Assembly (NCBI GenBank): GCA_951828385.1
Contig: OX639973.1
Span: forward strand, 5,990,845 to 6,054,844
Direction: 5' to 3'
DNA length: 64,000 nt
Source: an uncultured Poribacteria bacterium
Lineage (GTDB): Bacteria > Poribacteria > WGA-4E > WGA-3G
Shown: piece after piece, positions 831 to 56,138 of the stretch
How positions within the stretch are numbered: the first letter of the stretch is position 1
How the letters are laid out: every line of letters starts with the position of its first letter
Notes under the pieces: model-generated
What the model was told of the DNA's origin: nothing
What the model saw: only the letters and a program-made list of their open reading frames with translations
The model's database searches: none
Program-made: the position numbers and the translations under genes

Positions 831-964
831 CGTGTGTCTCCTTTGTATAGAGTTTAGCAGTTTTTGGCGTAGCTTGCAAGCCAAAACTTGCTGTTGAAGG
901 CGAGATTATGTCAACTTCTTTGAGATGTCTGAAACAATCAGATTTTCGCTAATTCACCAGATCT

Positions 965-1049
965 GGTAAATGTGGTTTTGCGGTGTACTCACCTGCCCCG
1001 CTGAGAAGGGGGATAAAGGGGGGTTGCGATCTGCATTCCCAACCGCACC
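965..1049 (+). repeat. HP-B long-loop hairpin repeat carrying a nested G-rich module (996-1025)
   Basis: GGTTTTGCGGTGTACTCACC...GCGATCTGCATTCCCAACCGCACC matches the HP-B copies at 1281, 3671, 50025 and 61108; the CAAAT core is replaced by CCCCGCTGAGAAGGGGGATAAAGGGGGGTT, a module also seen at 55021-55047. Confidence 0.7.
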
Positions 1050-1280
1050 ATAGGTGTCAATTTGAAAAAATAACTGTTGTGGTCCCCAGGCCGGTAGGTT
1101 TGGTTTCCTAACTGAACCGGATTCTACGCGACAACCTTGAAGACTTCAAAAACCTCTTCAGTCCTGTAAGGACGGTATGTTTATAGAAGGACGTTTCAAA
1201 GAAGTATTCAACCCTGTAAGGGTGGCATGTTTATATCATGTATGCTAAAGCACTGCAAAAAATCGCTAAATTGACACTAT
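1050..1280. mobile_element. E1: MITE-like non-autonomous element with terminal inverted repeats
   Basis: Starts ATAGGTGTCAATTT and ends AAATTGACACTAT (its reverse complement minus one base); interior holds hairpin 1091-1120 and two stem-triloop modules (1161-1186, 1211-1236); related copies at 3628, 16372 and 49982. Confidence 0.6.
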
Positions 1281-1336
1281 AGTGCGGTTTTGCGGTGTAC
1301 ACACCCAAATGCGATCTGCATTCCTAACCGCACCGG
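1281..1336 (+). repeat. HP-B long-loop hairpin repeat
   Basis: GTGCGGTTTTGCGGTGTACACACCCAAATGCGATCTGCATTCCTAACCGCACCGG; arms GTGCGGTT/AACCGCAC are complementary. Confidence 0.75.
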
Positions 1337-1475
1337 ACATTGCTAAGAAATTAACCAATATTTTTTTATACAAGCACTGCGAATAACATCTGTCGGAGGG
1401 ATTTCTAACCCCGATTCTTCCGCAATTCTCCCTTGACTGTTTTGACTAAATATGCTATCCTTTAATAAGTAATAA

Positions 1476-1850
1476 TCCAAGTTGCTACTAACAGATTTTG
1501 CCCACTTCGGAAAGGTTTTTTTTGTCTTTTTCCACACCCCAGATGAGGTTTAACAAATAAATTGGGTAATTGTGGCTACGCGACGTGCGATGAATCGCAC
1601 TACTACGAACCGATCTACTTGTTATCACACGTCTCAGAATTACCCGATTAAATTCTTAATCTTCATGAGGGGTGATATATCTATAGAAAATAGCGTATCT
1701 GTGCGATCGCACTCCAGATGAAGTTTAACAAATAAATTGGGTAATTTTCTAACCAGACCCGGTGCGGTTAGGAAACCGCACCTACCGGGCCTGGGGAGTG
1801 CTGGAATTACCCATTTAAATACTTAATCTTCATGCGGAGTGCTATGTGTG
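1476..1850. repeat. Composite mosaic of repeat modules (two large inverted pairs of the ATTACCCGATT...TTAATCTTCAT module, a short-loop hairpin, stem-triloop tails)
   Basis: 1476-1536 parallels 24086-24146. The module at 1537-1572 (-) is inverted relative to 1637-1686 (+), and 1712-1746 (-) relative to 1803-1850 (+). Hairpin CCCGGTGCGGTTAGGAAACCGCACCTACCGGG lies at 1758-1789. Confidence 0.7.
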
Positions 1851-1919
1851 TAAAAAGATGGAAACTTGCGTTAAGTAATAATCTATTTAAAGACTTCATA
1901 CCTTTTTGAGGATAAGTGA

Positions 1920-2135
1920 ATGAAAAAGAGAGCATATAGCAGATATCGAAAATCATGGCGATGGCAAAACAAACGCCGGACGATCTTGAAGCGAGCGGGC
2001 TATAAATGTCGAAAATGTGGAAGACGCGCGGCGACACAGGTACATCACGAAACCTATAAACGCATCGGCAGAGAACGACTCAGCGACCTAACTGCGGTAT
2101 GTAGCGGATGCCATAAGCGGATTCATGGAAAATAG
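1920..2135 (+). CDS. small HNH endonuclease
   Basis: 71 aa; two CxxC pairs (CRKCG...CSGCH) flank QVHHETY...H, a typical HNH zinc-finger nuclease core; GAGGA RBS before the ATG. Confidence 0.75.
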   Translation: MKKRAYSRYRKSWRWQNKRRTILKRAGYKCRKCGRRAATQVHHETYKRIGRERLSDLTAVCSGCHKRIHGK

Positions 2136-2175
2136 TAACTAACCCTAATACTGAAGGAGGTCAACTTTAAAGTAA

Positions 2176-3381
2176 ATGAACAACCAATCTAATTCCCAAA
2201 GCAATCTCAACAGAATTTTGGAAAAAATCAACGAAATAGTAGAAAAATCGGCTGGCGGAGACTACATCTATCGCGGTGAAGCTGAATGCTTTGAGAAAAT
2301 CTCCTCAAGTCTCTATCGTGAGTATCCCCATGCAGAAGGTGAACGCTTTAATATAGAACGTGACCAAGAAGCAATTCTGAACGAGGCAAAAGAGTATACC
2401 AACGAAACTGACTTAATTAAAATCCTAGCCGAGCTCCAACACTTTAGTGGTAAAACCAACCTTATTGACTTTACTGAAGATTATCTCATTGCCCTCTTCT
2501 TTGCTTCTGATGGCTCCCACGAGAAACCAGGTAGGGTTATCCTTCAAAAAAGAGAATCCGAAAACTACAAGGTCGAGAAGGCACCCAAAACAATTAAACG
2601 CGCTGAGGCACAAAAGAGCGTATTCGTCCAATCACCCGACGGTTTTATTGAGCCGGATATTGAAGTCGATATCCCTATAGATCTCAAGTTCCCCATGTTA
2701 GAATATCTACGAAAATATCACAGAATTTCTGCTGAGACGATCTATAATGATCTTCATGGTTTTATTAGACGCAGTGCTTCCACGGAATTTCTTAAAGGTC
2801 TTACCTGCCAAGCAAAGGGGGATGAAGCGAGGATCGATTGGGTCGCCAACTTGTTTGATAAATGCCGGATTGTGTCTGACGATGAGATGCAAAGCTTGTG
2901 GGCGCGTGTTCTAGCTGGAGAGGCGAACACCCCTGGGACCTATTCAAAGCGGACTGTTAATCTTCTTTCAGATTTTGACAAAAACGATGCAGATTTATTC
3001 ACCAGACTCTGCGGATTCGGTTGGGTGATTGGGAATGTTGTACCATTGGTGTTTGATATTCAAGCAGACATCTACAATAGAAACGGGATTAACTTTGATA
3101 CTCTGAGTCACCTTGAAACTATTGGACTTATTCAATTTGAGAGCCTTACAGGTTTCAGACTTCTCAAGCTTCCCAAAAGATTTGCCGTGTCTTATTATGG
3201 TAAGCCTCTCTCCTTGGAAATGGCTGAGGATGCTAACAATGAACTTAAGACTGGAAAAGTACTTCTCACAAAGATCGGACAGGAACTTGCTCCTATATGC
3301 GGAAGTAAACCTGTAGAGGGCTTCTATGAGTATGTCAAGGAGCAGTGGAAGGAATACTTACCTACAGCGGAGAAAGATTAA
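2176..3381 (+). CDS. FRG domain - DUF2806-like fusion protein
   Basis: N-terminus has YRGE...SSLYR...LAELQHFSGKTNLIDFTEDYLIALFFA (FRG-domain signature). C-terminus has SDDEMQSLWARVLAGEANTPGTYSKRTVNLLSDF (DUF2806-like signature recalled from memory). Lies 40 nt downstream of the HNH gene on the same strand. Confidence 0.6.
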   Translation: MNNQSNSQSNLNRILEKINEIVEKSAGGDYIYRGEAECFEKISSSLYREYPHAEGERFNIERDQEAILNEAKEYTNETDLIKILAELQHFSGKTNLIDFTEDYLIALFFASDGSHEKPGRVILQKRESENYKVEKAPKTIKRAEAQKSVFVQSPDGFIEPDIEVDIPIDLKFPMLEYLRKYHRISAETIYNDLHGFIRRSASTEFLKGLTCQAKGDEARIDWVANLFDKCRIVSDDEMQSLWARVLAGEANTPGTYSKRTVNLLSDFDKNDADLFTRLCGFGWVIGNVVPLVFDIQADIYNRNGINFDTLSHLETIGLIQFESLTGFRLLKLPKRFAVSYYGKPLSLEMAEDANNELKTGKVLLTKIGQELAPICGSKPVEGFYEYVKEQWKEYLPTAEKD

Positions 3382-3398
3382 GGTGGCCAAACAATCTT

Positions 3399-3522
3399 GT
3401 GCACATGCCGCCCTTACAGGGCTTGTTTCTATTGATTGCGCGCGTGCTATAAACATGCCGCCCCGCTGGGGCTAAAGATGTAGAAGGAGTGTTTCTATAC
3501 ACCTGTCGCCCCGCTGGGACTG
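3399..3522 (-). repeat. three phased stem-triloop (SL3) modules
   Basis: Minus strand reads GTCCCAGCGGGGCGACAGGTGTATAG, GCCCCAGCGGGGCGGCATGTTTATAG and GCCCTGTAAGGGCGGCATGTGCAC, spaced about 48-50 nt apart. Confidence 0.7.
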
Positions 3523-3605
3523 GAGATCTGATGATACAAAGAACTACGAAAATCCGCGATTTGCGGCGGACGCGCCCAAATGCGACGTGCATTCAGACAA
3601 GCATT

Positions 3606-3958
3606 GGTGCGGTTCGGAAACCACCCCATAAGTGTCAATTTTAGAAAAAATAATCGTCGTGGACCCAGGTCCGGTAGGTTCGGTTTTGCGGTGTACACAC
3701 CCAAATGCGATCTGCATTCCTAACCGAACCGGATTTTACGCGGAAACCTTGAAGATTTCAAAACCTTCTTCAGTCCCGTAGGGTTTATTTGCTTGGGTAT
3801 TTCTTCAGTATGTTTATAGCAGTGGTTTCGAGCAGACGCCTAAGCCCTGTAAGGGGTTTTTGCTTGGGTGTTTCTTCAGCATGTTTATATCCACAGTTGC
3901 TAAAACGCCATCAAAAACCGCTAAATTGACACCTATGGTGCGGTTCGGAAACCACCCC
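3606..3958. mobile_element. E2: MITE-like element (3628-3936) with flanking perfect 22-bp direct repeats
   Basis: TIRs are ATAAGTGTCAATTT (3628-3641) and AAATTGACACCTAT (3923-3936). GGTGCGGTTCGGAAACCACCCC occurs at both 3606-3627 and 3937-3958. Interior holds HP-B 3671-3732 and two SL3 modules with loop insertions (3773-3819, 3844-3890). Confidence 0.65.
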
Positions 3959-3971
3959 TACCAGTTTGTGA

Positions 3972-6900
3972 TTACAATGGCGGCAACCCATTAACAATCT
4001 CGATCGTCCGGAGACTGACAGTGACAACGCGCCCAATCAAATCCACAATATACTGCGGCGCATCCGCACGATTCGGGTCGTTCACAATCCCGCTCCGCTT
4101 GTCTACCTTAACACGATACTGATCCACCACCCACTCCAACGCAGAACGCGTGCCTAATTGATATGCAAACGCCTCCGCCGGAATGCCCGTCAACGTAAAG
4201 TAGTCATTGTAATAAATCTGCGTCTTATCTTTCGAGAACCGCATCTTTTCCACCTGCCAATCTATTCGCTGTGTATTCGGGGTCTCCACAAGCTGCAGTT
4301 TTTCATACTTCGGAACGGATTCATAGTTAACGTGGAGGTCTGCTAACTGCGCGCCTGCATTGGCGAATCCCCAAAAATCTTCAGCAAACGGGATATGCGG
4401 TAAATCGCGCTTGAGGTTCACCTGATACTTTTCACGATAATCAGGGTGATGCAGGACAGCGTAGTTGTAGTGAAAGATGTCCCACTTGGTGATAGTGTCG
4501 TCTCCGTAGTGCGTTCGGAACTCTGCCAATGCCCAATCGGTGATGTTCTCTTGGCGGTTTGTGCCGTCTTCATTGTAGGTATAGAAAGGAAAGCATTGGG
4601 AATCGACTGTGAGATGGAGATCTGGAATCACGTCAACCATCAGTGTGTGAAAAGAGGCATTTGTCCTTGAAGAACTGACACAAATCACCCGATTTTCTGA
4701 TTCTGTATTGGGTGTTGGAAAGATAGACGGGAAAACGGATGCACGCTCGGTCATCATTCTTGGATCAAAATAGAGGTTCAATTGGGTAAATGGGCGATAG
4801 AGGGATTTTCTAATCTTTTCTTGGGAAAAATGGATAGTTTTCCCACTTTTCAATTTATTCTTTAAGCCTGAACTCCACTTGATTTTCGTTGCATCGGGTA
4901 TCACAAAATCATCAAGTTTTACCGCGCTGTTTTCCCTTCGTTTCCACCGGTCGACCTCTGTGTTGTAAGTCTCGGTCATCTGCTGAACATTCTCAGCGAG
5001 AGCGTTTTGATTGAAGTTGTAAACCCATGAATCTCGATTCGTTGACACACCGAGACTGTAAGTTTTGAAAACAACATTCGTACCCACATCCTTTGCTTTC
5101 GTGCTTCCCATCGGTAGGAAAGTGTCAAATTCGGGGTGGAGCCCTTCGGTGAGCCATGTATACCGACCGTCAGGTGTTATCTGCTGCCAACTAATGTTTT
5201 GATAGTGTTGTTTTGAATCAAGATAGCGGTACTTCTCCTCTTTCCGCCAAAATTCGTCAACGCGCGCATAGAAGATTTCTGCAGTTTTTAGACTTGTCCT
5301 GGGAGTGTTTCTCTTGACGAAAAGATTAATGCTCACCCCGACCTGAATTCCAAAGACGTTGTGCGTCGTTCCTGACAACTTTGGGTTCTTACGGACGTTC
5401 CCACTCAGATCCAAAATATAAATCGCATCGAAATCAGCTGCGAGGTGTTTCCGCATGCCATCAAACGCGGTCCCGTCCAGAAAGCCGTTGTTTGTCACAA
5501 ATGCGACAACACCTTCCTTGCCAATTCGCTTTGATGCCCAACTGAACGCTTTGACATACGGATCGTATAGTTTGTTTTTTAGCTGCGCCGCAGAATCTTT
5601 CGCATAAGTCTCTTCAACCTGTTTATCCATGGTGGGATATTTGCGGTTTTTATTGTTATCGTTTTCGTTGACTTGCTGCGCGTTGTAAGGCGGGTTGCCG
5701 ATAACGACGAACATATCCGCCGCCTTCTGCTTCTCCACGCGTGCCGTGTTTTCCTGTGTGAAGAGTGCTATTTGTTGATCCTCAAACAACTCAAACGTGT
5801 CCGCAAGTGAGATCCCCTCAAACGGCAGGTAGGTCCCTGTCCGTTGAAAGTATTCCTGCTCAATGTTCAAACTCGCAATATAGTAGGGCAATAACAGAAT
5901 CTCGTTGCAATGCAGTTCGTGGCAGTACTTCTCTTCGAGTGTAGTCGCTTGGATATCCTGCATGAGTCGGACGATGAAGTTGCCGGTCCCCACAAACGGA
6001 TCGATAATGTGAACCCCAGTATCTGACAGCGACCTATGAAATTCAGTTTCTAAGATATGCGCAACACTTTTCACCATGAAATCGACGATCGGTTGTGGTG
6101 TGTAGACGATGCCGTGTGTGTCTGCGACCTCAACAGAGAACCCCTGAAAAAACTGCTCGTAGACGGTGTTAAGAAATTGCTGTTTTTGAGAGAAGTCTTT
6201 ACAGAGGAGTGCTGCCTGTTCAATGGCAAGATAAAACGGGTTTAGTTCTTTGAGGAATGCATCGCGACTATAGGTCTGCCCGATGAGCACTTCAATGACT
6301 TTTTCAATCTCGCGTGCGATGATATTTCGGCGGGTGAAGTCGGGATTATTGAAGACGGTACGGAAGATGCGTTCCGTGAGCAGATGTTGGATGAGCATCT
6401 CCTCAACGGCGGCTTTAGAGAGATTCGGATTAATCGCGGCGCGGCACTGTTCATAAAAACCTGTGAAAGCGGTGACAAATGTCGGGTTTGTTTCGTGTTG
6501 TTCGGCTATCAGTTCTGCCGCTTTTCTACCGAGTGCGGGGACCTTCTCTTTAAATTCAGCGACAGCGGCGTGCCAGTTCGCGAGCGCAGCGGGTGGCGCG
6601 GCGAAGAAGTGTTGGAGTGCCGTAATCAGGCGTGTTGGATCGGTGATGTCTACGTCAAAAACCTGTTCTCCGTTCTGATAGAGGATGCCGTGTTGTGGGT
6701 TTTGGAAGAGCGTGTTGTCGAGGGGATAACCTGCCGCTCGTTTCTCCTGCACGGCTCTGGTCAGATTATCGTCCATATCCTTCGCTTCCCAATAGGCGAA
6801 GGGCAGTCCGTATGCGTCGAGTATCACACCATCAAGGACGATACGGTTACCTGATGGCCCGCGCATAGCGAATTGTGGAATGAGGGTAGCATCCACCTGT

Positions 6901-7040
6901 TTTGCACAGACAGTGAGCAGCGTTTCAAAAGGGGAACTGACCGCGCCTTCGTGTGTGACGTTGTGTTTGTCGTATTGGCGCAGCGTGGCGTAATAGTCTC
7001 GGATTGCTTTGTGGCTGGGTTTAAGGTTGAGTTGTAGCAT
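3972..7040 (-). CDS. single-polypeptide restriction-modification enzyme, MmeI/YeeA-like (Type IIL/IIG-like): N-terminal PD-(D/E)XK-like nuclease + gamma-class N6-adenine methyltransferase + C-terminal specificity region
   Basis: 1022 aa; SAM motif IIDPFVGTGNF; catalytic motif VVIGNPPYN; N-terminal LDGVILD...YWEAKD resembles a D...ExK nuclease motif; long C-terminal region is typical of fused TRDs. Confidence 0.75.
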   Translation of the reverse strand: MLQLNLKPSHKAIRDYYATLRQYDKHNVTHEGAVSSPFETLLTVCAKQVDATLIPQFAMRGPSGNRIVLDGVILDAYGLPFAYWEAKDMDDNLTRAVQEKRAAGYPLDNTLFQNPQHGILYQNGEQVFDVDITDPTRLITALQHFFAAPPAALANWHAAVAEFKEKVPALGRKAAELIAEQHETNPTFVTAFTGFYEQCRAAINPNLSKAAVEEMLIQHLLTERIFRTVFNNPDFTRRNIIAREIEKVIEVLIGQTYSRDAFLKELNPFYLAIEQAALLCKDFSQKQQFLNTVYEQFFQGFSVEVADTHGIVYTPQPIVDFMVKSVAHILETEFHRSLSDTGVHIIDPFVGTGNFIVRLMQDIQATTLEEKYCHELHCNEILLLPYYIASLNIEQEYFQRTGTYLPFEGISLADTFELFEDQQIALFTQENTARVEKQKAADMFVVIGNPPYNAQQVNENDNNKNRKYPTMDKQVEETYAKDSAAQLKNKLYDPYVKAFSWASKRIGKEGVVAFVTNNGFLDGTAFDGMRKHLAADFDAIYILDLSGNVRKNPKLSGTTHNVFGIQVGVSINLFVKRNTPRTSLKTAEIFYARVDEFWRKEEKYRYLDSKQHYQNISWQQITPDGRYTWLTEGLHPEFDTFLPMGSTKAKDVGTNVVFKTYSLGVSTNRDSWVYNFNQNALAENVQQMTETYNTEVDRWKRRENSAVKLDDFVIPDATKIKWSSGLKNKLKSGKTIHFSQEKIRKSLYRPFTQLNLYFDPRMMTERASVFPSIFPTPNTESENRVICVSSSRTNASFHTLMVDVIPDLHLTVDSQCFPFYTYNEDGTNRQENITDWALAEFRTHYGDDTITKWDIFHYNYAVLHHPDYREKYQVNLKRDLPHIPFAEDFWGFANAGAQLADLHVNYESVPKYEKLQLVETPNTQRIDWQVEKMRFSKDKTQIYYNDYFTLTGIPAEAFAYQLGTRSALEWVVDQYRVKVDKRSGIVNDPNRADAPQYIVDLIGRVVTVSLRTIEIVNGLPPL

Positions 7041-7189
7041 AGAGGTATAATAGCAAATTTTGGGGATAAGTCAATGGAAAATTGGTACACCAATATTTTT
7101 CTGACATCCGTTTCTGCAAAGTATGCTATAATGCGTTTAATAAGGCAATATATCCACGTCTTGCCAATCACAAAAGAGAGGAATTCGAT

Positions 7190-11526: not shown

Positions 11527-11565
11527 CCTAAAGGGGTATTTTGTCCCAAGGACTATCTTGTGCCT

Positions 11566-11691
11566 TTGTAGCACAAACTTTCCAGTTTGTGTGCTTTTAT
11601 CAAACTTTTGTAGCACAAACTTTCCAGTTTGTGTGCTTTTATCAAACTTTTGTAGCACAAACTTTCCAGTTTGTGTGCTTTTATCAAACTC
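11566..11691 (+). repeat. 3 x 42-bp perfect tandem repeat, each unit a terminator-like hairpin plus T-run
   Basis: The unit TTGTAGCACAAACTTTCCAGTTTGTGTGCTTTTATCAAACTT repeats with a 42-nt period (reference G at 11568, 11610, 11652); arms GCACAAAC / GTTTGTGTGC; lies 40 nt after the ATPase stop. Confidence 0.85.
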
Positions 11692-11728
11692 ACGTTAGTA
11701 GCAACTTAGGTTAAAATGGAGAAAAAAC

Positions 11729-16351: not shown

Positions 16352-16607
16352 GTTGAACTCGAAGCAGATCTATAGGTGTCAATATAAAAAACAAGGGCGT
16401 TTTCGCACCTGAAAACAGATGTTGAGCAGAATACCTCACGAGTCAGAACTATTACATCAGGCAGGTGTGTTGTTTTTAGTCCCGTAGGGACGATATGTTT
16501 ATAGCTGCATGGATTGTTCCTTTTTTCAGCCCTGTAAGGGCGGCATGTTTATAGCTTGTGTGAAATATCCTAAATTGACATTTATGGGTTGAACTGGAAG
16601 CAGACCC
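16352..16607. mobile_element. E3: MITE-like element (16372-16585) with imperfect 20-bp flanking direct repeats
   Basis: TIRs are ATAGGTGTCAATAT and AAATTGACATTTAT; SL3 modules at 16479-16504 and 16529-16554; flanks are GTTGAACTCGAAGCAGATCT and GTTGAACTGGAAGCAGACCC. Confidence 0.55.
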
Positions 16608-20212: not shown

Positions 20213-21085
20213 ATGGCAGAAACTACGAACCACACAAAACCTTTTATCGTTGATAAAAACCTCGGCGCTGCGCTCGACCTCGATAATACGCAACTGACAA
20301 AAACAACTTCTGACGGCACACCCGTTGTTCCACCGACACAGGAACAGAAGTACCTCTTTGATATGCGCGGCTGGCTCTTAGTACCCGGTGTACTGTCAGG
20401 TGATGAACTCGCGGAGATGCAAGAGTTCGGCTATAAACTCCACCACGAACCGGAGTCGATTCCGAAGCACGAACGCTCACCGCTCGGTGGTCCCCTGCAA
20501 CGCCTCTCTGACCATCCAAATGTTGTCGGTTTCCTCAACGAGTTTCTCGCACATCCAGCACTATCAAGCCAAGAATGCTATGGATTCAGGATGGAATCGT
20601 GCCATCTCTTCTATCGCACTGTCGGCGATGCGAAGTTCAATCCCCACAACGGAAACGGCATGCTCCGCTTTCCGGGTGATTCGCACCTCTATCGCTGTAT
20701 CCCAGGAAAAGGACACAGCGGATTAACCCGTATCGTCTGGGAACTCAACCCTGTCAAATATCGGCAGGGCGGCACCCTCTTTATTACAGCGAGCCATAAA
20801 GCCGTCTACACAGCACCCGAAACAATCCGGAGCCAAGATTCACCGATTTGGGATACTTATGAATGTCCTGCTGGCTCACTCCTTTTTTTCACAGAGGCGT
20901 TGACACATAGCGCGCACACGTGGACAAACGAGGAGAACAATCGCCTCGCTACTTTCAGTTGTTACAACACTGTCAATAGCAAGTGGAGTGCTTGGGAACC
21001 GCATCCGAAGCTGCTTGAGGAGATGCCTTCCAAACGACAGACCCTTTTCCGTCCCGTCCGCGCCGCCAATAATTTGATCGGCTGA
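20213..21085 (+). CDS. PhyH-like 2OG/Fe(II) oxygenase family protein (paralog 1)
   Basis: The GGTLFITASHKA segment resembles the PhyH G.l.v.pGSHk strand, and a distal FFTEALTHS is present; the assignment is tentative. Confidence 0.5.
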   Translation: MAETTNHTKPFIVDKNLGAALDLDNTQLTKTTSDGTPVVPPTQEQKYLFDMRGWLLVPGVLSGDELAEMQEFGYKLHHEPESIPKHERSPLGGPLQRLSDHPNVVGFLNEFLAHPALSSQECYGFRMESCHLFYRTVGDAKFNPHNGNGMLRFPGDSHLYRCIPGKGHSGLTRIVWELNPVKYRQGGTLFITASHKAVYTAPETIRSQDSPIWDTYECPAGSLLFFTEALTHSAHTWTNEENNRLATFSCYNTVNSKWSAWEPHPKLLEEMPSKRQTLFRPVRAANNLIG

Positions 21086-21319
21086 TAATTATCAGCATTA
21101 AATTGACTAAGGGAGGTTTCATACCGCAAAGTGCTGAATATAATTTCAGGAATGGTATAATATTTTCAGGTTTATGCACAAAACGGGTATTGAAGGATGA
21201 AAACGAAAGTTGGAAGGATGGTGAGTACCTATCTTTCCAGTCAAATCCATCTAATCTGGAAAGTAAACGAAGGGATCTCGAGCAGGTCCTAATTTTCCTA
21301 CAACCAAGAGGATTCTCTC

Positions 21320-22207
21320 ATGGCACAAGTCACAGATCACACAAAACCGTTTATCGTTGATAAAAATCTCGGAGCAGCGCTCGATATCGAGAATGCCCAA
21401 CTTACGGAAACAACCTCTGATGGCACACCCGTTGTTCCACCGACACAGGAACAGAAGTATCTCTTTGACATGCGCGGTTGGCTCTTAGTGCCCGGTGTAC
21501 TGTCAGGCGACGAACTCGCTGAGATGCAGGAATTCGGCTATAAACTCCGCCACGAACCGGACTCGATTCCAGAGCATGAACGTTCGCCGCTCGGCGGTCC
21601 CATGCAACGCCTCGCCGATCATCCGAATGTCATCGGCTTTCTCAACGAATTTCTCGCACATCCCGCATTATCAAGCCAAGAATGCTACGGATTCAGGATG
21701 GAATCCTGTAGCCTATTCTCCCGCACTGTCGGCGATGGAAACTTTGGACCCCACAACGGAAACGGGATGCTCCGTTTTCCCGGTGATTCGCACCTCTATC
21801 GGTGTATTCCGGGCAGAGGCTATAGCGGACTAACCCGCATCGTTTGGGAACTCAATCCTGTCAAATATCGGCAGGGTGGCACCCTCTTTATTACAGCGAG
21901 CCATAAAGCGGTCTATACTGCACCCGAAACAATCCGAAGCCAAGATTCGCTTATCTGGGATACGTATGAGTGCCCTGCTGGGTCGCTCCTCTTTTTCACG
22001 GAGGCGTTGACACATAGCACGCACACGTGGACGAATGAAGAGAACGATCGTCTCGCTATTTTCAGTTGCTACAATACGGTCAATAGCAAATGGCACGATT
22101 GGGATCCGAATCCAAAGCTGCTTGAAGAGATGCCTGCCAAACGGCAGACCCTTTTCCGACCCGTCCGTGCCGCCAATAATTTGATCGGCGAGGCGTATCG
22201 GCATTAG
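21320..22207 (+). CDS. PhyH-like 2OG/Fe(II) oxygenase family protein (paralog 2, tandem duplicate)
   Basis: By eye, about nine in ten residues are identical to the 20213-21085 product along its whole length. Confidence 0.5.
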   Translation: MAQVTDHTKPFIVDKNLGAALDIENAQLTETTSDGTPVVPPTQEQKYLFDMRGWLLVPGVLSGDELAEMQEFGYKLRHEPDSIPEHERSPLGGPMQRLADHPNVIGFLNEFLAHPALSSQECYGFRMESCSLFSRTVGDGNFGPHNGNGMLRFPGDSHLYRCIPGRGYSGLTRIVWELNPVKYRQGGTLFITASHKAVYTAPETIRSQDSLIWDTYECPAGSLLFFTEALTHSTHTWTNEENDRLAIFSCYNTVNSKWHDWDPNPKLLEEMPAKRQTLFRPVRAANNLIGEAYRH

Positions 22208-23863: not shown

Positions 23864-23937
23864 ATCCGTTGCCTCAACTGGCAAAAGAATGAGATTTCAG
23901 TTCACTTTCCGTCACTGGTCGGATTTCATGAAGTTTA

Positions 23938-24015
23938 CTTGTAGCATAGGAAACCGTTAGTCTGTGCGAAAAATATGTTTACCCTTGTAGTATAGGAAAC
24001 CGTTAGTTTCCTGTG
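23938..24015 (+). repeat. two copies of a 46-nt-period repeat containing the hairpin AGGAAACCGTTAGTTTCCT
   Basis: CTTGTAGCATAGGAAACCGTTAGTCTGTG at 23938 and CTTGTAGTATAGGAAACCGTTAGTTTCCTGTG at 23984. Confidence 0.7.
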
Positions 24016-24084
24016 GCATCGGGACACAACTTCACAGTTCACACGACGATACGAGTGTCTAAGTAATTACGGAATTGACTATAG

Positions 24085-24429
24085 TAACCCAAGTTGCTAC
24101 TAACGGATTTTGCACGCTTCGGAAAGGTTTTTTGCCTTTTTCCCCACCCCAGAGGGGTGATATGTCTATAGAAAAAGGTGTATCAATGTCTTGCACTCCA
24201 GCGGAGTGCTATGCCCGGTAGGTGCGGTTTCCTAACCGCACCGGGTCTGGTTAGAAGATTACCCGATTAATTTTTTAATCTTCATGAGGGGTGATATGTC
24301 TATAGAAATCGGAAGGTTTTTTGCCTTTTTCCCCACCCCAGAGGGGTGATATGTCTATAGAAAAGGGTGTATCAATGTCTTGCACTCCAGCGGAGTGCTA
24401 TGTAAGTAAATAGGTGGCAACTTGGGTTA
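24085..24429. repeat. inverted-repeat-bounded mosaic containing two near-identical 67-nt SL3 pairs, a short-loop hairpin and an ATTACCCGATT module
   Basis: Boundaries are TAACCCAAGTTGC (24085-24097) and GCAACTTGGGTTA (24417-24429). CACCCCAGAGGGGTGATATGTCTATAG...CACTCCAGCGGAGTGCTATG occurs at 24145-24213 and again at 24334-24402. Hairpin at 24214-24245. Confidence 0.75.
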
Positions 24430-24507
24430 TAATATCTATTGAGAAAGGTCTATAATCCTGTAAATCCTTGAATCTCGTAAATCCTGATTCAGACAATTAA
24501 CATCGAA

Positions 24508-24556
24508 CATTACCCGATTCAATTCTTAATCTTCATTGGAACTTATATGTCTATAG
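24508..24556 (+). repeat. ATTACCCGATT...TTAATCTTCAT module with ATGTCTATAG tail
   Basis: Matches 1637-1686 and 24256-24305. Confidence 0.7.
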
Positions 24557-24648
24557 AGATTTCTCTGGAATAGGTAGGAACTTAGGTGGTAGATGAGGAA
24601 ACTTAATGTTGCCGAAGGGTACCCTATATTCCGAAACAGGAGGACAAA

Positions 24649-25422
24649 ATGATTAACAGGACTCTGAGATACATGCTTGTTTTAGCCGTTATAACAACCG
24701 GCCTAATGGCTGCAAATGTAGCACAAGCGCGTCAAGCGATTACCGATGGACTGGTGAGTTACTGGTCATTTAATAAGGATTCGATCGCAGATAAAACGGT
24801 GGAAGACATTTTTGGGGACAACGATGGAACCATGGACGGGAACGTTGAGGTTGTTAAGGGTAAAGTCGGTGAAGCACTCAAGTTTAGTGGCGGGCATGTC
24901 GATTGTGGATCAGATAAGAGTTTAACTGATATTGGTGATCAGATAACATTGGAGATGTGGATAAAGCCTGAAAAACCGGGTTGGGCGATTATCGCAGGCA
25001 TGTCAAGGTCAGGAAATAACTCTTATGTGATTGCGTGGTCAGACCAAACTCGCGTTGATTTCAATCTCTGGAACGGTGCATTAGAGACGTGGCCCTTTCA
25101 CAGCATAGCGCAGCCCGATGTGAATAAATGGCATCACGTCGCTGGCGTTTACGACGGTTCCAAAGCCATAATTTATATTAATGGTGAATTTGATAGTGAG
25201 AAAGACTTCGAGGGGGCTCTCAAACATAATGGCGAGAATTTTTGGATGGGTGCCAGAAAATCGGATGGGCTGCCTTTCAACGGCCTCCTCGACGAACTGC
25301 GCCTCTACAACCGCGGTCTCAGTCAAGAAGAGATTGAACAGAACCTTGACGCGGAAGGACTTGCCGTCGAACCGACCCAGAAATTGGCACTCACTTGGGG
25401 GTTAATAAAGGTTTCAAAGTAA
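24649..25422 (+). CDS. secreted LamG (Laminin_G_3 / concanavalin-like) domain protein
   Basis: Signal peptide; GLVSYWSFN...GKVGEALKFSG...WHHVAGVYDG...LDELRLYNRGLSQEEI; AGGAGG RBS. Confidence 0.8.
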   Translation: MINRTLRYMLVLAVITTGLMAANVAQARQAITDGLVSYWSFNKDSIADKTVEDIFGDNDGTMDGNVEVVKGKVGEALKFSGGHVDCGSDKSLTDIGDQITLEMWIKPEKPGWAIIAGMSRSGNNSYVIAWSDQTRVDFNLWNGALETWPFHSIAQPDVNKWHHVAGVYDGSKAIIYINGEFDSEKDFEGALKHNGENFWMGARKSDGLPFNGLLDELRLYNRGLSQEEIEQNLDAEGLAVEPTQKLALTWGLIKVSK

Positions 25423-25501
25423 GACTGCGAATGAACAAGCAACAGCACTTTTCCATTGAAGAGTTGACAGCCGACCATCCAGATTGGCAAAGGTAATTTT
25501 C

Positions 25502-25915
25502 GTGAAGCAGTTAACCGACGCTGAAAAACAGGAACTTGAGACGAAAATTCAAAAAGAAAAGGAACGACAGCAAAATCTGCGAGAAACGAATCCGGACCTA
25601 CCAGAATCTTTTGAAGAAGCATCAGCAAAAACAGGGATTGTCCGGAAGTTTGTACCAAGGCGATTCTGGAAATACGGTTTTCTTGTGATCCTTCTTTGCT
25701 TGCTTGCTTTCAACGTGGTTCTATTTTTTCAGGGACGAGATCCCGGTTCTAAAAAGATCATCAATGTCAGCCTCATGCTTGTTTTGCTGCTACTCTTCAA
25801 TCACATTGCCTCTTATTTTACAACAAAAGGTTGGAAAAGTTGGGTGATGAAAACGGTCGCATGGGTTTGGATGGCACTTGTACTCGTCTATATGTACATT
25901 TCTTGGGTAGCTTAG
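25502..25915 (+). CDS. small membrane protein (paralog A)
   Basis: Charged N-terminal helix followed by 3 hydrophobic segments; close paralog at 27113-27538. GTG start chosen by alignment with the paralog (KQLTD.EKQ), so the start is uncertain. Confidence 0.55.
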   Translation: MKQLTDAEKQELETKIQKEKERQQNLRETNPDLPESFEEASAKTGIVRKFVPRRFWKYGFLVILLCLLAFNVVLFFQGRDPGSKKIINVSLMLVLLLLFNHIASYFTTKGWKSWVMKTVAWVWMALVLVYMYISWVA

Positions 25916-39707: not shown

Positions 39708-39790
39708 CACCCGTAGGAGCGAGTGTTTTTGCTTGGGGTTTTTACTTGGGTGTTTCTGCGGATTTCCCCATGCTCGCGATATTTGAACTA
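39708..39790 (+). repeat. SL3-type module with TTTGCTTGGG-type loop insertion
   Basis: CCCGTAGGAGCGAGTGTTTTTGCTTGGGGTTTTTACTTGGGTGTTTCTGCGGATTTCC parallels 3773-3819 and 50126-50200. Confidence 0.6.
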
Positions 39791-40386: not shown

Positions 40387-43300
40387 ATGTTCAGAAAAGA
40401 AAAATGCTTAATCGTCGCGTGTGTACTTTATCTTTTATCCTGCACTTTCTATTTTCCCGCAATCACCCTCGCCCAAGACGAAAATGTCGTCGAACGCTAC
40501 AAATTAATGCTCAGTCGCAACCCGAAAGAAGGAAGTACGTTCGACCGACTTTACCAACTCTATCTTGAGGATGCTGGCTTGGATGCCATGGTCGCCGATT
40601 ATCAGGCAGAAGCAGCAGCCAAACCCAACGATTCAAACCTCCAACTCATCTTGGGACATATCCACAAACGTCTCGGAAAAGATGCGGAGACGCTTGCTGC
40701 ATATCAACGTGCCGTTGAACTCGCGCCAAACAACTATTATCCGCATTTTGCATTGGGACAGATGTACGCAACCCTGCGTCGGCATGAGGACGCGATTCGC
40801 GAGTTGACAAAAGCCGCAGAATTATCAGAAGAGACACAGGCCGCGTCTCCTGAAGAATTGATGACGATTTACAAGGCACTCGGACGCGCCTATTTCAGCC
40901 GAGACCGCGTAGACGAAGCAATTTCGGCATGGACAAAAATCTCTGAACTTGATCCAGAAAACATTTTTTCCCGTATTGAACTCGCAGACCTCTTCCGAGA
41001 ACAACAACTCTACGAGCAAGCCATCGCGCAACATGAAGCGATTATCGCACTTAAAACCGACGATCCATATCGCGTCTGCTTGAGTCGTCGGGAAATCGGG
41101 AATATACACGAGGAAAAGAGCGATTACGAGGCAGCCATCCAAACCTACGAAGCCGCATTGGCGTTGACGGCACCCGGAAACTGGTTGCGCAAAGACCTTC
41201 AGCATCGCATCATCGGCATTTACGCCGCTGACGGAAACTGGGAAGGCTTAATCACACACTATAAGGAAAAACTTGAAAATACACCGAACGATCCAGAACT
41301 CATCGGTTTACTGGCTGAAGCACATATTGAAAACCAACAGTTAGACGAAGGAATTGATGCTTATCAAAAGGCACTTGAACTCGCACCGACAGACACTGCG
41401 CTCCGCTTGAACTTAATCGCTGCACTCCGCACCGCTGAAAAATTTCAGGAAGCGGCGGCTGCCTATGAATCCCTCAGCGAACAACAACCCGACGATTTTG
41501 GCATCTACCGCGAACTTGGCGAACTATACCTGCAATTGGATGACGAAGACAAGGCAAAAGCCACCTATCAACGGATGCTTGCGCGCGACCCCGATAACGC
41601 AAGCACACACCTTATCCTTGCCGAGATTTACGCCAATCATGAATGGATAGATGATGCTGTTACAGCATATCAAAAGGCGATTTCACTGGCACCCGATAAC
41701 CTTGATTATATTGAATATTTCGGTGAATTTTACTTCCGAGAAGGGGACCGCGCGAAAACTTTGGAGACATGGAATCAGATGGTTGCTGGCGACAAAGCCG
41801 CCGCTGAAAACTATGACCGACTCGCGAAGCTGCTTGATAGCAAAGCACGCGTCCTAAACAGTCAAACCGAAGCCATCGCTGCAAGTCGAAAAGCTGCTGA
41901 GTTGGCGCCCGATGTCTACCGTTATCGTGAGGCGTTGGCGAAGCGACTCGTGGAGAACAAAGATTATGATGAAGCCTTAACGGAATACACGGAAGCCGCG
42001 AAACTCGCACCGAACGAATTTTTCGCTGAACAGATGGACAACCAGCGCATCGAGATCTTTCGCAGGCAAGGAACACTTGTTGAAAAAATCGGTGCTCTGG
42101 AAACAGCACTTGAAAAACCAGACATTGCAGCTGCGGATGCCTTCACCCAGTCCAAGCAGCTCGCGAAGATGTACCTCAAACTTGGCAATACCACCTATGC
42201 ACTCGAAGTGCTTATGAAGGCGAAGGCTCTCGAATCCAATGACGTTGTTGTTAACCGTTGGATCGCGGAAGTATACACGTTACAGGGACGGCGTGACGAT
42301 GCCAACGCTATCTACACCCATCTAATTGAAGTTGATGGCGCGAATGCCCGCGAATACTATGCAAACATAGCGCGCGCCTATCTTGAAGTCATGGATTTTG
42401 CTGCTGCTACGGAGGCAGCGAAGCAAGCAATTGCGCACAGTCCGCGCAACCCCGAAGGGCATCAGATGCTTGCACTGATCGCGAAGCAGGCAGGAAATTA
42501 CCAGACGGCTATTGACAGCTTCAAGCAGGCGATTCGGCTGCGACCGGAATCTACCAACATCCGTTCCGAACTTGCTGAAATTTACAAACTTTCAGGAAAC
42601 CCCCGACAGGCACTTGAACAATACTGGCGGTGTTGGGAATTGAGCGGAAGCATCAGTGATAAGCTCGCTTTTGTCAAACCGCTTTCTGAATTATATTACG
42701 ACTTGGGACGACGCGGCGAGTTGGAAGAAAAATTGAAACAGATGTCGAAAACGAACACATCTGATATAGGTGCCGTCGTCGCATTAGCGAACCTCTATCA
42801 GATGGAGGGCGACTTACCCAACGCACGTTTCCAACTTGCGCGCGCTTTAGATCGGAGGCGCGATAACCCGGACCTTTTGGCACAACTCGTCAAAATCAGT
42901 CTCGATCTCGGTGATACACAGGACGCGCTCACCTATCAACAACGACTCGTTAAGGCACAACCGAATCCTATGCATAGGCAACGGCTCGGAGAATTGCTCT
43001 TTGATGTCGGGCGGGAACAAGAAGCGATTCAGGCGTGGACCAAACTCCTCCATACCAAAAATCAACCCTTTGACGCAGAGATCAAACTCGCAACTTTACT
43101 GATTCAGCATGGACTGTTGGATGAGGCGATTTCTGTTCTTGACCGTGCGGCGGAAAAGGTAACAGGCCCAAACGCGCATATTGAACTCTATCAGTTGGGT
43201 GATGCCCTCGTCGAAATGAACGAATTTGACCGAGCACGTCCGCTTTTTCAGAGGGTGCTTGACATGCCTGAACCGACGCAGACTGCAACACAGAACCCAA

Positions 43301-46300
43301 TAACAAATGTACCTCGCGCGACATCGGGACCTCCCGGAATCAGGACAGATAGATTTAATCTACCGCGAACGCTCACCTCGCGAATTCAGCGATCCGCATT
43401 TCAGATGCAGGGCGGGCAGCAAACTCAGTGGATACCGACGGACTTTGATGAGGCACAAGCAGGCGCGCTCGTCCAGATAACAACTATCGCGCAACAGCAA
43501 CGAAAATTGGAGGCACTCATCAACCAGCTTGAAGCTCAAGCTGATGCCGATCCCAAAAATATAAAGGGCCTCGAAACGTTAGCGCAAATCTATATCTTAA
43601 CAGGAAATACCGACAAGACGAATGAAACACTTGAACGGCTAATTACCGCATCACCCAACGACCCTGTCTATCAAGGAACGCGCTTGACCCGATTAATGGG
43701 GCAAGGCATCAGTTATGAAACGCTGAAAAAATATCTTGATGAAATGACCGCTTTAGCCCCTGACGCACGGCTCTGGTATGTCGCACGATATGCAAGCGAC
43801 TTCTATCGGCAGGGACGCAAAGAAGATACCGAGAAGCTGGTCGTAGAACTTGTAGATGCAGAGGTGTCTGACCTCAATACTGGGGCAACGATTGTCAGTA
43901 CGCTCGCACGGATGGGGAAAACAGACGCTGCCGAGAAAGTCCTTACACAGATGCCAGTACCCGGGCTCTCAACGCCGCAACGTCAGTCAGTACAGAATAC
44001 GCAACCGCCAGCCATCGGTCAATTATCATCCGCATCGCAGCAATGGCATCGGTATCGGGATATTTATCAAAATCTCGCCACTGCTTATATTCGTGAGGGA
44101 CAGACTGACAAGGGTATTACGCTGTTCTGGTCCTTCTTTGAACGCACCAAACCGCAAGCGACAAACGCACGGCGCGTCGCAACCTTAGCTTATGCAAATC
44201 GATCTTACTCCGGCTACACATCGCTACAGACAAACTATCCAGCGCCGACGAGTTACTACAATCAAAATCGTTTACAGTTCCTCCAACGGGTTTTCAGCCA
44301 ATTGTGGTCCCGCGATCAACAGGAGGCACTCTACAAAAAATTGCAGGCTGAATTGGAGCGCGCGACAGGAAGAGACCGTATCTATCCGAGCTTGGCACTC
44401 AGTTATTGCTATTGGTGGGCAGGGCAGCGTGACGAGGCACAAGCGGTACTCGCCGCGCTTCAAAAGGAATTCCCTGAGGATCTCACCCTCAAACTAAACA
44501 CAATTTTTGCTTCTATCCAAGCTGGACAACACGCCGCGGCTTTCAAATTAATTACCGGACTCGCTGAGGCAGACCCGAGAAACCGCAAACAGTACCATGA
44601 ACTCACACTGCAGCTTGCCGTGCAGACAGGCGATACCGTTGCTGTACGCGAACTCGTGACGAAGGTACTCAATTCACCGAGTGGGGCGCGTGAACTTTAT
44701 CAATTCTCGCGAACGCTCCAACAGAACGGACTCACCCAATACGCAATCGCTATTGCCAAAAAAGCGATGACCCTGGCAACCGGTGAACGGGATCCGAACT
44801 TCCTTGTAGATTTAAGCCGACATTTGGATGACTTAGGACGAGGGCAGGATGCCGCACGGATCGCTGCGCGCGCAATGCAGTTCGTCAACCAGCGCGACCG
44901 ATACGGACGCACCTTGTATTCGTGGGACTTTCGACGCGCCGTACAGACCGCTGGGCGCGCAAAAGGATTGCGAGACCGCGAACCGCAGTTGGTGGCAGCT
45001 GTCCAGAAAGATCCTAATTCATTTCAGGCACAAGTCAGGTTGGCAACATTCTATGAACAGACGAATCAGGTGCAAAAGGCATCCGAAGCGTTTGACGCGG
45101 CACTTGCCCTGCGCCCTCAGGACAGTATGACACGACAGCGATACGCACAGATGTTACAGCGACGCGGCAAGGCAAAGGAAGCGGCAGCCCAATACTTGAT
45201 ACTCCTCAAGGAGAATCCGAGCGCACTCGGCTACAACTATTATCAGGTCATGGAGGTTTTCTTTACCGCTGGCAAAGTTGATGAACTCGTTTCGCTCGCG
45301 AAAGATATGATCGTCCCATCTGTCGGGATGGGTTATAGCAACTTTTTCGCAGAAGGCGTGGCACGTCAGTCCCTCGAAAACAATAACCCTAAAGCCGCAA
45401 TTGAACTCTACGAAAAAATTATTGCCGTGCAACCAAACGACATTTCTGCCTATACCGCATTGGCTTCCGCTTATGTCGCTGCAGGTGATCGTGAAAAGGC
45501 GATCCAGTTCCTACGCGAAAAATTGGACGTAAAAGACACAGCACTATCGCGATCCCCACACGTACAGGTGGATATTGTATCAAAACTCACTGAGTTCTAC
45601 AAAGCATCAGATCAGATAACGGAATTGCTAACCGAATATGAAGCAAAACTTGATGAGAAACCGGACGACGCGTTGCTAATCTATCTCGTCGCTTCTATGA
45701 AGATTGCAGCGGATGACCTTGAAGGCTCAGACGCACTCGTTGACAAACTCCTCGATGATTCAACACCTGTGGATACACACTGGTTAAACAATCTCGCCGA
45801 TGCTTACCGAGGCGCGAATGACAGAGATCGTGAACTGCGTTTGCTGGAGTCGGCAATCGCGAAAATCAATCATCAAGATACATGGCATCTGACAGAAACT
45901 TATCAAAAACTTGGCACGGTTTACGCCAAGAAGGGTGAGAAAGAGAAGGCGCAAAACACATTCCGTAAGATGGGGACGTTCCGTTTGCTCCAAGGGCGTG
46001 GTTCCTATGAGAAGCAACAAATCGCGAACACGTACATGCAACACGAAATGTGGACCGATGCTGAGGCACTCTTTACCGAAATCGTTAATGATTTCTCAGC
46101 GCAGCAGTGGGACCGGGAACAAGCACAACGACAGTTAATGCAAATCAAGCAGCGACGTGATGGGGTGGCGAAGACAACCCGTACGCCTGAAAAAATGGAG
46201 AAGTTTGATGTCGGGATGCAAAGAACGTTAGCACAGCAGTATGTTCAACAGAACGAGGTCAAAAAGGCGGTAGACATTTACGAGAAACTTGCAGAGGTGA

Positions 46301-50334: not shown

Positions 50335-50466
50335 CACAGAGTGTCCTATTAATTCTAAACTTTACTATAAATAACCCTATGTTTATAGAGATTCCCGTTG
50401 ACGTTTTCGCATTGGATATGCTACTATAACTCAGAACTAAACGATGACGATTGTGGAGATGACAGA

Positions 50467-55113: not shown

Positions 55114-55234
55114 GTTTAGTAAAAAACCGCTAAACGTGCTATAATTACCTCACCGATCCTGAAAGCCTCGAAACCACATCAGAAATTTTCCATAGCTGCG
55201 GAAATAGGCCCACTTCCGCAAGGAGCTACGCACA

Positions 55235-56077: not shown

Positions 56078-56138
56078 GTGTCTCTTGTGTAGGCGGGACT
56101 TACTGGGTGACTTTCGCACACCTAAAGGAGCGATTGTT

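Follow-up and report, generated by a model that had tools for sequence, protein, structure and literature searches.

Repetitive extragenic palindromes (REPs) with their REP-associated tyrosine transposases (RAYTs), and the insertion sequences of the IS200/IS605 family, are the closest described relatives of the repeat family presented here. The published search for REPs requires a GTAG or GTGG tag and a basal stem of 7 to 20 paired nucleotides (Quentin et al. 2018, PMC6006769). The same study distinguishes, among the TnpA-Y1 proteins, a subclass 1.2 that is close to IS200, not IS-like, low-copy and without REPs, with a median length of 148 aa, the motifs DH[IV]H (HuH), WQ (W) and Y---Q--HH (Y) and a short conserved C-terminal tail. 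For the TIRYTs, or "TIRtrons", an Acidobacteria group has been described (Di Nocera et al. 2013, PMC3733652); they have been identified with subclass 2.1, whose proteins are longer (median 238 aa; PMC6006769). Finally, the Rfam family RF01687, Acido-Lenti-1, has been filed as a small RNA (sRNA), with no description of a transposase link (Weinberg et al. 2010, PMC2864571). Here, we describe a 27-nt module that recurs in a stretch of 64,000 nt (the window) of an uncultured Poribacteria bacterium (contig OX639973.1, positions 5,990,845 to 6,054,844). The module is probably a REP-like DNA repeat, the end-recognition unit of a small element with a Y1 (HUH, IS200-like) tyrosine transposase. The copies in the window are gene-less derivatives, mostly direct pairs inside two kinds of shell that resemble miniature inverted-repeat transposable elements (MITEs).

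The module is an A followed by a GC-rich stem of 5 bp enclosing a 3-nt loop, then by 3 nt of linker and the tail ATGT(T/C)TATAG, and its copies in the window are situated in intergenic DNA. Shuffles give an expectation of 0.11 exact matches to ATGTYTATAG, whereas the window has 10, and most of these tails are preceded by a perfect 5-bp GC-rich stem, the 3-nt loop and the 3-nt linker. A covariance model (CM) trained on 54 modules, all of them from other loci and none from the window, recovered 8 full-length copies (28.6 to 43.9 bits, E <= 1.4e-7), 4 partial or variant copies at 15 to 18 bits (3403-3422 on the minus strand, 24195-24213, 24384-24403 and 24277-24305) and 3 tail-only relics (3807-3819, 50374-50388 and 24540-24556). 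The recurring hairpin-plus-tail module of the preliminary description is therefore real, and its figure of at least 15 copies holds when variant, interrupted and relic copies are included, with 8 copies being intact. The stems listed there are correct and keep their complementarity, and the ending CTATG that it gave as an alternative is present in the sequence as a 2-nt linker, CT, plus a variant tail, ATGTAAGT. At least three subfamilies coexist in the window: GYCCY-GTA with ATGTTTATAG, GCCCC-AGC with AGGTGTATAG or ATGTTTATAG, and CACCCC-AGA or CACTCC-AGC with ATGTCTATAG. Paired modules start 48 to 50 nt apart, as had been noticed before, and over all the loci described below the distance between same-strand neighbors peaks at 50 to 51 nt, with 174 pairs at 49 to 53 nt.

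A scan with ANNCCNNNNNGGNNGRYATGTTTATAG over one genome per species returned at least 120 loci (numbered L001 onward), about 97 of those listed being metagenome-assembled genomes (MAGs) of Candidatus Poribacteria from many species; the genes of the window have 73 to 89% nucleotide identity to Poribacteria loci. Another 23 loci among the matches listed belong to other phyla (Acidobacteriota, Verrucomicrobiota, Flavobacterium, Neomarinimicrobiota and others). These are not chance matches: in 18 of 24 cases the stem is complementary at its three free positions, and the loci have one architecture in common. This architecture is a four-hairpin unit of about 165 to 200 nt without an outer terminal inverted repeat (TIR), in which hairpin A with G-R-Y and ATGTTTATAG, a spacer of ~24 nt, hairpin B with G-R-Y and ATRT... 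and a short center are followed by both modules in inverted orientation. Poribacteria have the same unit and, in addition, modules in direct pairs, in triplets and, once, in an array of 13 or more units. A position profile of 205 Poribacteria modules and 27 others gives A + hairpin + G-R-Y + ATGTTTATAG as the conserved core, to which Poribacteria modules add TCTTTA on the 5' side; the ~20 nt after the module are unconstrained, and from Poribacteria to Acidobacteriota and Flavobacterium the 13-nt tag hardly changes. The copies are not, then, decay products of a single duplication that lacks conservation in relatives. The cyanobacterial small dispersed repeats (Elhai-type), considered on account of a GCGATCGC site in the window, were ruled out, since the genome scan shows the window to be from Poribacteria. 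We found nothing relevant in the literature on the 10-mer or on Poribacteria MITEs, and neither RepRanger nor Di Nocera et al. 2013 (PMC3733652) describes a matching repeat.

That the structure is under selection, as had been suggested from the compensatory stem changes, is supported by covariation at all 5 stem pairs. With the tail as the sole anchor, the expected register held a perfect 5/5 Watson-Crick hairpin in 70 of 118 sites not matched by the search pattern, in 22 of 36 sites at Y1 loci chosen by protein and in 6 of 12 sites in the window; shifted registers gave no 5/5 hairpins at all. When 111 unique tail-anchored sequences are aligned without gaps and without regard to the stem, double-sided changes occur at all 5 stem pairs, and the number of compensatory cells (78, compared with 31.5 in shuffles) was reached by 0 of 500 shuffles. 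The covariation score is 0.396 versus 0.224 in shuffles (again 0 of 500), above that of every slid register. The whole four-hairpin unit also folds in single-stranded DNA (ssDNA) as one long hairpin (-58 kcal/mol, z = -14.9); as this fold needs no self-complementarity within each arm, the covariation points to the local hairpin. Local ssDNA hairpins are likewise predicted for the direct module pairs of the window.

The association that best accounts for these hairpins is with a transposase gene. Clustering of open reading frames (ORFs) over the at least 120 loci returned mostly ordinary expanded gene families and one small cluster of ~155 to 180 aa, which Pfam identifies as Y1_Tnp (PF01797) at 88 to 100 bits. 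By tblastn, the gene was found in three Poribacteria loci (L069, L108 and L054), in L008, with a protein that shares ~90% identity with Pyrinomonadaceae proteins, and in L091 (Flavobacterium aquidurense), with a distant copy in L084, and modules flank it in every such case examined. For an unbiased test, Y1 homologs were selected by protein similarity alone (L121, L122-125 and L126 from Poribacteria, L127-129 from Pyrinomonadaceae), and 6 of 6 distinct loci had modules or whole four-hairpin elements within ~250 nt. In total, the ~155-aa Y1/HUH gene adjoins modules in eleven independent loci, six of them protein-selected. The layout is outer module, inner module and gene in 8 loci, with the inverted pair usually coming next where the 3' flank is covered. 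The complete unit, [outer][inner]-Y1 gene-[inner'][outer'], is found in L126 and L127, and in L128 and L129 the gene lies between two whole four-hairpin elements. Inverted repeats flank the gene on both sides in L069, L108, L008, L121, L122, L126 and L127-129; in L054 and L091, truncated by the end of the locus, only the 5'-side modules are visible. Since the modules bracket the Y1 gene in an identical layout, we take the four-hairpin element to be the same element minus the gene. The suggestion of an ssDNA hairpin recognized by a Y1 enzyme is thereby supported, as Y1_Tnp genes occur in module loci and the homologs picked by protein are all module-flanked, and IS200-like TnpA genes bordered by the hairpins do exist in other genomes.

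Two other routes to a partner gene were tried and rejected. Module-pair geometry (plus-strand followed by minus-strand modules 0.4 to 5 kb apart), used to look for autonomous copies, mostly delivered ordinary genes between separate elements. An IscB/TnpB (HEARO) partner, considered because of a small HNH ORF at 1920-2135 and several ORFs of ~400 aa, was discarded after Pfam identified FRG/DUF2806, a MacB-type permease and an amidohydrolase and neither TnpB nor IscB.

The full element, present in other genomes and not in the window, is about 650 bp long and carries the ~155-aa Y1 gene between inverted two-module arms, each formed by an outer module (hairpin, G-R-Y and ATGTTTATAG or a close variant), ~24 nt and an inner module (hairpin, G-R-Y and ATGTG...). 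We propose that loss of the Y1 gene would leave the ~165-nt four-hairpin elements. Module pairs and arrays are also located within other small elements. By analogy with the TnpA proteins of IS608 and ISDra2 and with the E. coli TnpA-REP, the 5-bp/3-nt hairpin would be bound on ssDNA by its shape, which would account for stems that covary and yet drift in sequence. The 13 conserved nt next to it would be read by sequence and would position a nearby cleavage, and the enzyme would act in trans on gene-less copies. The complementary strand of the module reads 5'-CTATAAACAT-RYC-hairpin. The 50-nt phasing would correspond to the fixed spacing between the outer and inner modules of an element end, and arrays would gain or lose whole units of 49 to 53 nt.

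Turnover of this kind is seen among the Poribacteria strains L122-125. With identical flanks, L122 and L125 differ from L123 and L124 by a single 49-nt unit of module plus spacer (~1868-1917), upstream of the Y1 gene, and the single-unit allele resembles a hybrid of both units of the longer one. Old copies also decay: the module orthologous to window 50374-50388 has one mismatch in L001, is broken in L010 and retains only its tail in the window. Because this orthologous module decays, dispersed single copies are not under purifying selection, and the covariation reflects what a copy needs for propagation.

These observations bear directly on the other option of the preliminary description, a structure at the RNA level. 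If the modules were units of a structured noncoding RNA, such as a relative of Acido-Lenti-1, the covariation would derive from RNA folding and the link to Y1 would be secondary. The stems do covary, and subthreshold RF01687 matches fall exactly on modules, on the complementary strand (14 bits at window 1161-1182 and 18 to 20 bits in L058, L114 and L077). The RF01687 consensus (PMC2864571) resembles the module complement in its linker, GCUAauuUAUgcCG (versus CUAUAAACAUGCC in the module), its 5-bp stem, its 3-nt loop and a U, and that family is also multicopy, found in Acidobacteria and of unknown function. However, the matches score 14 to 23 bits against a gathering score of 37, the modules are missing the 5' hairpin of the Rfam model, and the 23-bit match, in L050, falls on a different, related-looking repeat. 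Neither the window nor 18 loci gave a match to any Rfam family at its gathering score; below threshold there were, apart from the weak Acido-Lenti-1 matches, meaningless matches of miRNA models on long palindromes, and no tRNA or tmRNA was found in the window. Both module orientations occur within one palindromic element, the orthologous module is mismatched, broken or lost in three species, and copy number differs between near-identical strains. Single mismatches show no excess of G.T (G.U) over A.C (11 versus 6 under the strict module definition, p = 0.33), and the modules form the inverted ends around a transposase gene. RNA folding is thus very unlikely to be what maintains the hairpins, and Acido-Lenti-1 may itself be a DNA repeat of this kind.

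The regular phasing raises a further alternative. A ~27-nt repeat, a ~24-nt spacer and a 50-nt period could represent a CRISPR-like or guide-storing array, or the modules could be regulatory palindromes or terminators, and the spacers within pairs do look unrelated among the window copies despite flanking shell DNA that is 76 to 88% identical. Nevertheless, the stem sequence varies between the repeats of a single array, most arrays have just two units and are paired with inverted arrays, and the spacers are recognizably related in long arrays (L092) and between related copies, which indicates duplication and not acquisition. There are no cas genes among the window ORFs scanned or in the recurrent ORF clusters of the loci, and the hairpins are not intrinsic terminators, as no T-run follows them. 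With the architecture explained by the association with Y1, we see scarcely any chance for this alternative.

Having placed the modules at the ends of a Y1 element, we compared this system with those already described. It resembles REP/RAYT systems in having short multicopy extragenic palindromes able to form hairpins, a seemingly low-copy Y1/HUH gene flanked by inverted repeats, dispersed gene-less inverted doublets and several subfamilies per genome, and its four-hairpin unit can be folded as one long ssDNA hairpin. In Pyrinomonadaceae the Y1 gene is also syntenic across species, its neighbors being kept in four divergent genomes (L008 and L127-L129), as with domesticated RAYTs. On the complementary strand of the module, tag and hairpin follow one another with the polarity of the REP 5' tag and of the IS200/IS605 guide. 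In contrast to REPs, there is no GT[AG]G tag, with just an A on the 5' side of the stem and a 13-nt 3' extension (G-R-Y + ATGTTTATAG) instead. The stem has 5 bp and a 3-nt loop, each end carries two direct modules at ~50-nt spacing, and the orientation of the tags is inward. The search of Quentin et al. was unable to detect such modules, because it demands a tag and a stem of 7 to 20 nt (PMC6006769). The protein is of class 1 (IS200-like), not class 2: the NCBIfam model REP_Tyr_transpos gives 27 to 35 bits against a cutoff of 80, and the IS200 equivalog gives 67 to 76 bits against a cutoff of 55. In a PDB search the nearest solved structures were the TnpA proteins of ISDra2 and IS608, and the E. 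coli TnpA-REP (RAYT) was not matched. Public annotations of the homologs read "IS200/IS605 family transposase" or a generic "RayT".

Within class 1, the proteins of L069, L108, L054 and L008, which are 153 to 157 aa long and contain DH[IV]H, WQ and YI.NQE.HH, match TnpA-Y1 subclass 1.2 by inspection of their motifs rather than by the hidden Markov models of its authors. An apparently low copy number with diverged paralogs agrees with that subclass, as does a kinship to IS200 with no sign of IS-like behavior; unlike it, the genes here are flanked by modules and their hosts are Poribacteria, Acidobacteriota and Flavobacterium. With IS200/IS605 and the derived palindrome-associated transposable elements (PATEs), the system shares the Y1_Tnp domain, a score above the cutoff of the IS200 equivalog, small subterminal hairpins, the lack of an obvious target duplication and the existence of gene-less derivatives. 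It differs in that both ends are inverted copies of one two-module arm (L126 and L127), where the classical left and right ends are distinct, and in that the tnpB partner is absent. Nor do counts by contig hint at numerous identical copies of the gene in a genome, most Y1 protein clusters at 90% identity having been seen on one contig, multi-Mb contigs included. TIRYTs are comparable in that a Y1 gene lies between long, partly self-complementary TIRs of a dispersed repeat family (PMC3733652), and they are set apart by their assignment to subclass 2.1 and by protein length, a separation made at the level of their descriptions. All in all, the system behaves like REP/RAYT or a TIRtron, yet it lacks several features of classical REPs and the end structure of IS200/IS605, and it is not a member of Acido-Lenti-1.

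Several observations weigh against the modules being the ends of a Y1 element. The window has no Y1 gene by tblastn, so any action on its copies would have to be in trans. The stem GTCCC-GTA-GGGAC, the commonest one in Poribacteria, flanks the gene in 0 of the 6 Poribacteria Y1 loci examined, the closest stem beside a Y1 gene being GCCCC-GTA in L054. The Poribacteria Y1 loci share no flank synteny with each other, the gene and its modules being their sole common part. Neither a clear target-site duplication, looked for at four-hairpin elements of several phyla, nor a clean empty site for such an element was found, so that the element boundaries are drawn from conservation alone. Ends formed by inverted repeats with two hairpins each depart from classical IS200/IS605, as do inward-facing tags from the usual REPIN layout, which is the opposite. 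Finally, most modules of the window sit inside other MITE-like shells, a possible route of spreading that does not involve Y1.

These shells are of two kinds, X-type with TIR CCATAGGTGTCAAT ... ATTGACACCTATGG and Y-type with TIR TAACCCAAGTTGC. The segment 24085-24429 is a Y-type composite, and its limits coincide with 13-bp TIRs, TAACCCAAGTTGC (24085-24097) and GCAACTTGGGTTA (24417-24429), a feature absent from the preliminary description. TA is present on both flanks; taken by itself, a TA duplication would be weak evidence. Besides the TIRs, the segment has the small size and the lack of coding capacity of a MITE, and a second copy exists at ~1473-1873; no partner transposase for this shell was identified. 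Within it, the left arm is followed in order by the first of two module pairs, a short palindrome (24214-24245), a right end from a different small element (24258-24287) joined to a half module, a repeat of the end of the left arm, the second pair and the right TIR. An internal direct repeat of 90 nt (24124-24213 and 24313-24402, 99% identical, 189 nt apart) accounts for part of this content, and the four copies at 24145, 24194, 24334 and 24383, which had been listed as separate instances, are two copies doubled by it.

The first of them (24145-24171, plus strand as are all those that follow unless stated otherwise) is intact, C-ACCCC-aga-GGGGT-gat-ATGTCTATAG, with a stem that can be extended to 6 bp (CACCCC/GGGGTG), a predicted ssDNA hairpin and a CM score of 39.4 bits, which its duplicate at 24334-24360 equals. 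The inner modules are variants: CACTCC-agc-GGAGTG-ct-ATG at 24194-24213, also a predicted hairpin, was shortened by the internal duplication (partial match, 15.3 bits), and CACTCC-agc-GGAGTG-ct-ATGTAAGTAAATAG at 24383-24412 lies beside the right TIR (partial, 17.3 bits). Between the pairs, a half module (24277-24305, 15.6 bits) keeps the 3' stem arm GGGGTG and at-ATGTCTATAG, with the right end of a Z element (see below) in place of its 5' arm. Outside the composite, a ATGTCTATAG tail relic without hairpin (24540-24556, 12.6 bits) follows another Z right end. In the sister copy, the loop of each of the two hairpins is split by a Z element of ~125 nt: the module ACCCC-ag(a)...GGGGT-gat-ATATCTATAG (1535-1686) by one at 1543-1667, and the inner module CACTCC-ag(a)...GGAGTG-ct-ATGTGTGT (1710-1853) by one at 1718-~1835.

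The remaining module pairs of the window are housed in X shells. The X-type MITE at ~1048-1283 holds a direct pair of intact modules, A-GTCCT-gta-AGGAC-ggt-ATGTTTATAG (1160-1186, 38.6 bits) and, 50 nt further, A-ACCCT-gta-AGGGT-ggc-ATGTTTATAT (1210-1236, 28.6 bits). Copy 4 (16370-16587) likewise has A-GTCCC-gta-GGGAC-gat-ATGTTTATAG (16478-16504, 43.9 bits), identical to the commonest Poribacteria form, followed after 50 nt by A-GCCCT-gta-AGGGC-ggc-ATGTTTATAG (16528-16554, 39.8 bits). Copies 2 and 3 contain the interrupted modules that had been noticed before and that do carry a TTTGCTTGGGTRTTTCT insert (3772-3819, 3843-3890 and 50125-50172). In copy 2 (3626-3938), the first module has 21 to 23 nt of TTTATTTGCTTGGGTATTTCTTC between the 3' stem arm and the tail (3772-3819) and the second reads GCCCT-gta-AGGG, insert, agc-ATGTTTATAT (3843-3890); in copy 3 (from 49980), the degenerate module GTCCC-gta-GGG is followed by repeated TTTGCTTGGG segments (50125-50172). 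On the minus strand there are three modules: GCCCT-gta-AGGGC-ggc-ATGTgcacaa, of the inner type, at 3397-3422 (partial, 18.3 bits), abutting the 3' end of the ORF at 2176-3381; the intact A-GCCCC-agc-GGGGC-ggc-ATGTTTATAG at 3447-3473 (42.9 bits); and A-GTCCC-agc-GGGGC-gac-AGGTGTATAG, with one T.G pair, at 3495-3521 (32.5 bits), the tail of which is the one that flanks the Y1 genes of L108, L121 and L122. The relic at 50374-50388 (13.4 bits) has kept only its ATGTTTATAG tail (50379-50388).

Such a distribution could also mean that the modules are subterminal sites for the DDE-type transposases of the X and Y shells, that is, passengers with no role for Y1. Nearly all the window modules are inside TIR-bounded shells, and many Poribacteria four-hairpin elements sit between CCATAGGTGTCAAT-type inverted repeats. 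X shells are flanked by direct repeats of 17 to 20 bp that differ in sequence from copy to copy (16352-16369/16588-16605, 3606-3625/3938-3957 and, in L108, ~4237-4255/4520-4538), as is typical of cut-and-paste or staggered-cut insertion; as target-site duplications, if that is what they are, they would be of unusual length. Yet double-stranded binding sites would be expected to keep their sequence and not to covary as stems, the same module is found with two unrelated types of TIR, the modules of other phyla have no outer TIR, and modules immediately end the Y1 genes. Moreover, because L108 has an X shell without any module (4256-4519), shells and modules are separable. We therefore regard DDE-type transposition of the shells as an improbable explanation for the modules, and we retain the Y1 element as the probable one. 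Separately, L108 has an X-shell insertion inside a module tail.

The Z element (~125 nt, TIR ATGARGTTTAACAAATAAATTGGGTAAT) sits exactly in the 3-nt loops of the two Y-type hairpins of the sister copy; the copy at 1543-1667 is 94% identical to L014 6850-6973, and Z right ends also occur at 24258-24287 and 24509-24538. Module loops look like preferred targets of other small elements. In L025 and L092, another small palindromic insert occupies the loop GTCCCG^TAGGGAC. A segment of 21 to 23 nt, TTTATTTGCTTGGGTRTTTCTTC, appears between the 3' stem arm and the linker at 3782-3804, 3853-3875, 39722-39757 and 50140-50186 of the window and at the equal position in L010, L027, L047, L073, L087 and L102. 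It is found in modules with differing stems from several Poribacteria species, tandemly reiterated in places, and could be a site-specific very small insertion or mark a module subfamily. Another dispersed palindrome, CCGGTAGGTKYGGTTTCCTAACYGMACCGG, present in many Poribacteria loci too, is located at 1091-1120, 24215-24245, 50305-50335 and, on the minus strand, 1759-1788; a longer form, with a loop insert of ~35 nt (TTGCGGTGTACACACCCAAATGCGATCTGCATTCC), is at 1282-1335, 3671-3732, 50025-50085 and 61114-61170. A sequence like the Y-type TIR (11701-11713) comes after a perfect tandem repeat of 3 x 42 nt (11565-11690, TTTGTAGCACAAACTTTCCAGTTTGTGTGCTTTTATCAAACT), each unit of which contains one 9-bp hairpin.

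Relative to L130, at ~89% identity the closest relative found, the window has an extra 1.6 kb, 23864-25483, which includes the repeat cluster and a gene with a LamG domain (LamG/Laminin_G_3, 24649-25422); in L130 the Rieske gene is directly followed by the homolog of the window ORF 25484-25915. As no exact-sequence records of the window Rieske and LamG proteins were found, orthologs were used for this comparison. In another Poribacteria contig, L134, an IS110-family transposase (DEDD_Tnp_IS110/Transposase_20, 3858-4378), unrelated to the modules, lies ~1.5 kb downstream of the Rieske ortholog. Several paralogous gene copies, tandem or dispersed, with 65 to 86% nucleotide identity are found at 20213-22207, at 25484-25915/27062-27538 and at 55169-58133 and 61385-62326; of the LamG-type family, the domain scan covered one member (24649-25422). 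The window also has an ORF of 3182 aa (40387-49935). The region 844-7170, with the small HNH ORF (1920-2135), an FRG/DUF2806 protein (2176-3381) and a Type ISP restriction-modification enzyme (3972-7040, minus strand), looks like a defense island with repeat-rich DNA at its borders; in L044, a syntenic Poribacteria locus, a 92-nt intergenic spacer takes its place.

At a broader level, we give even chances to the proposal that subclass 1.2 is the enzyme of an old cross-phylum REP-like system, independent of the class-2 RAYT/REP one and characterized by a 5-bp/3-nt hairpin with a 13-nt tag in phased doublets, with the Rfam candidate sRNA Acido-Lenti-1 as a related DNA repeat. A Y1/HUH subclass reported without cognate repeats is now linked to a concrete, easily made 27-nt candidate DNA substrate. 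Hairpin repeats of this type escape searches that look for GTAG tags and for stems of at least 7 bp, and in annotation they can be mistaken for sRNAs, CRISPR-like arrays or promoters. Uncultured sponge symbionts contain them in abundance, and at least four other phyla have them too. In the genome studied here, the modules and the small elements inserted in their loops fill much of the intergenic DNA and mark segments that vary between close relatives.

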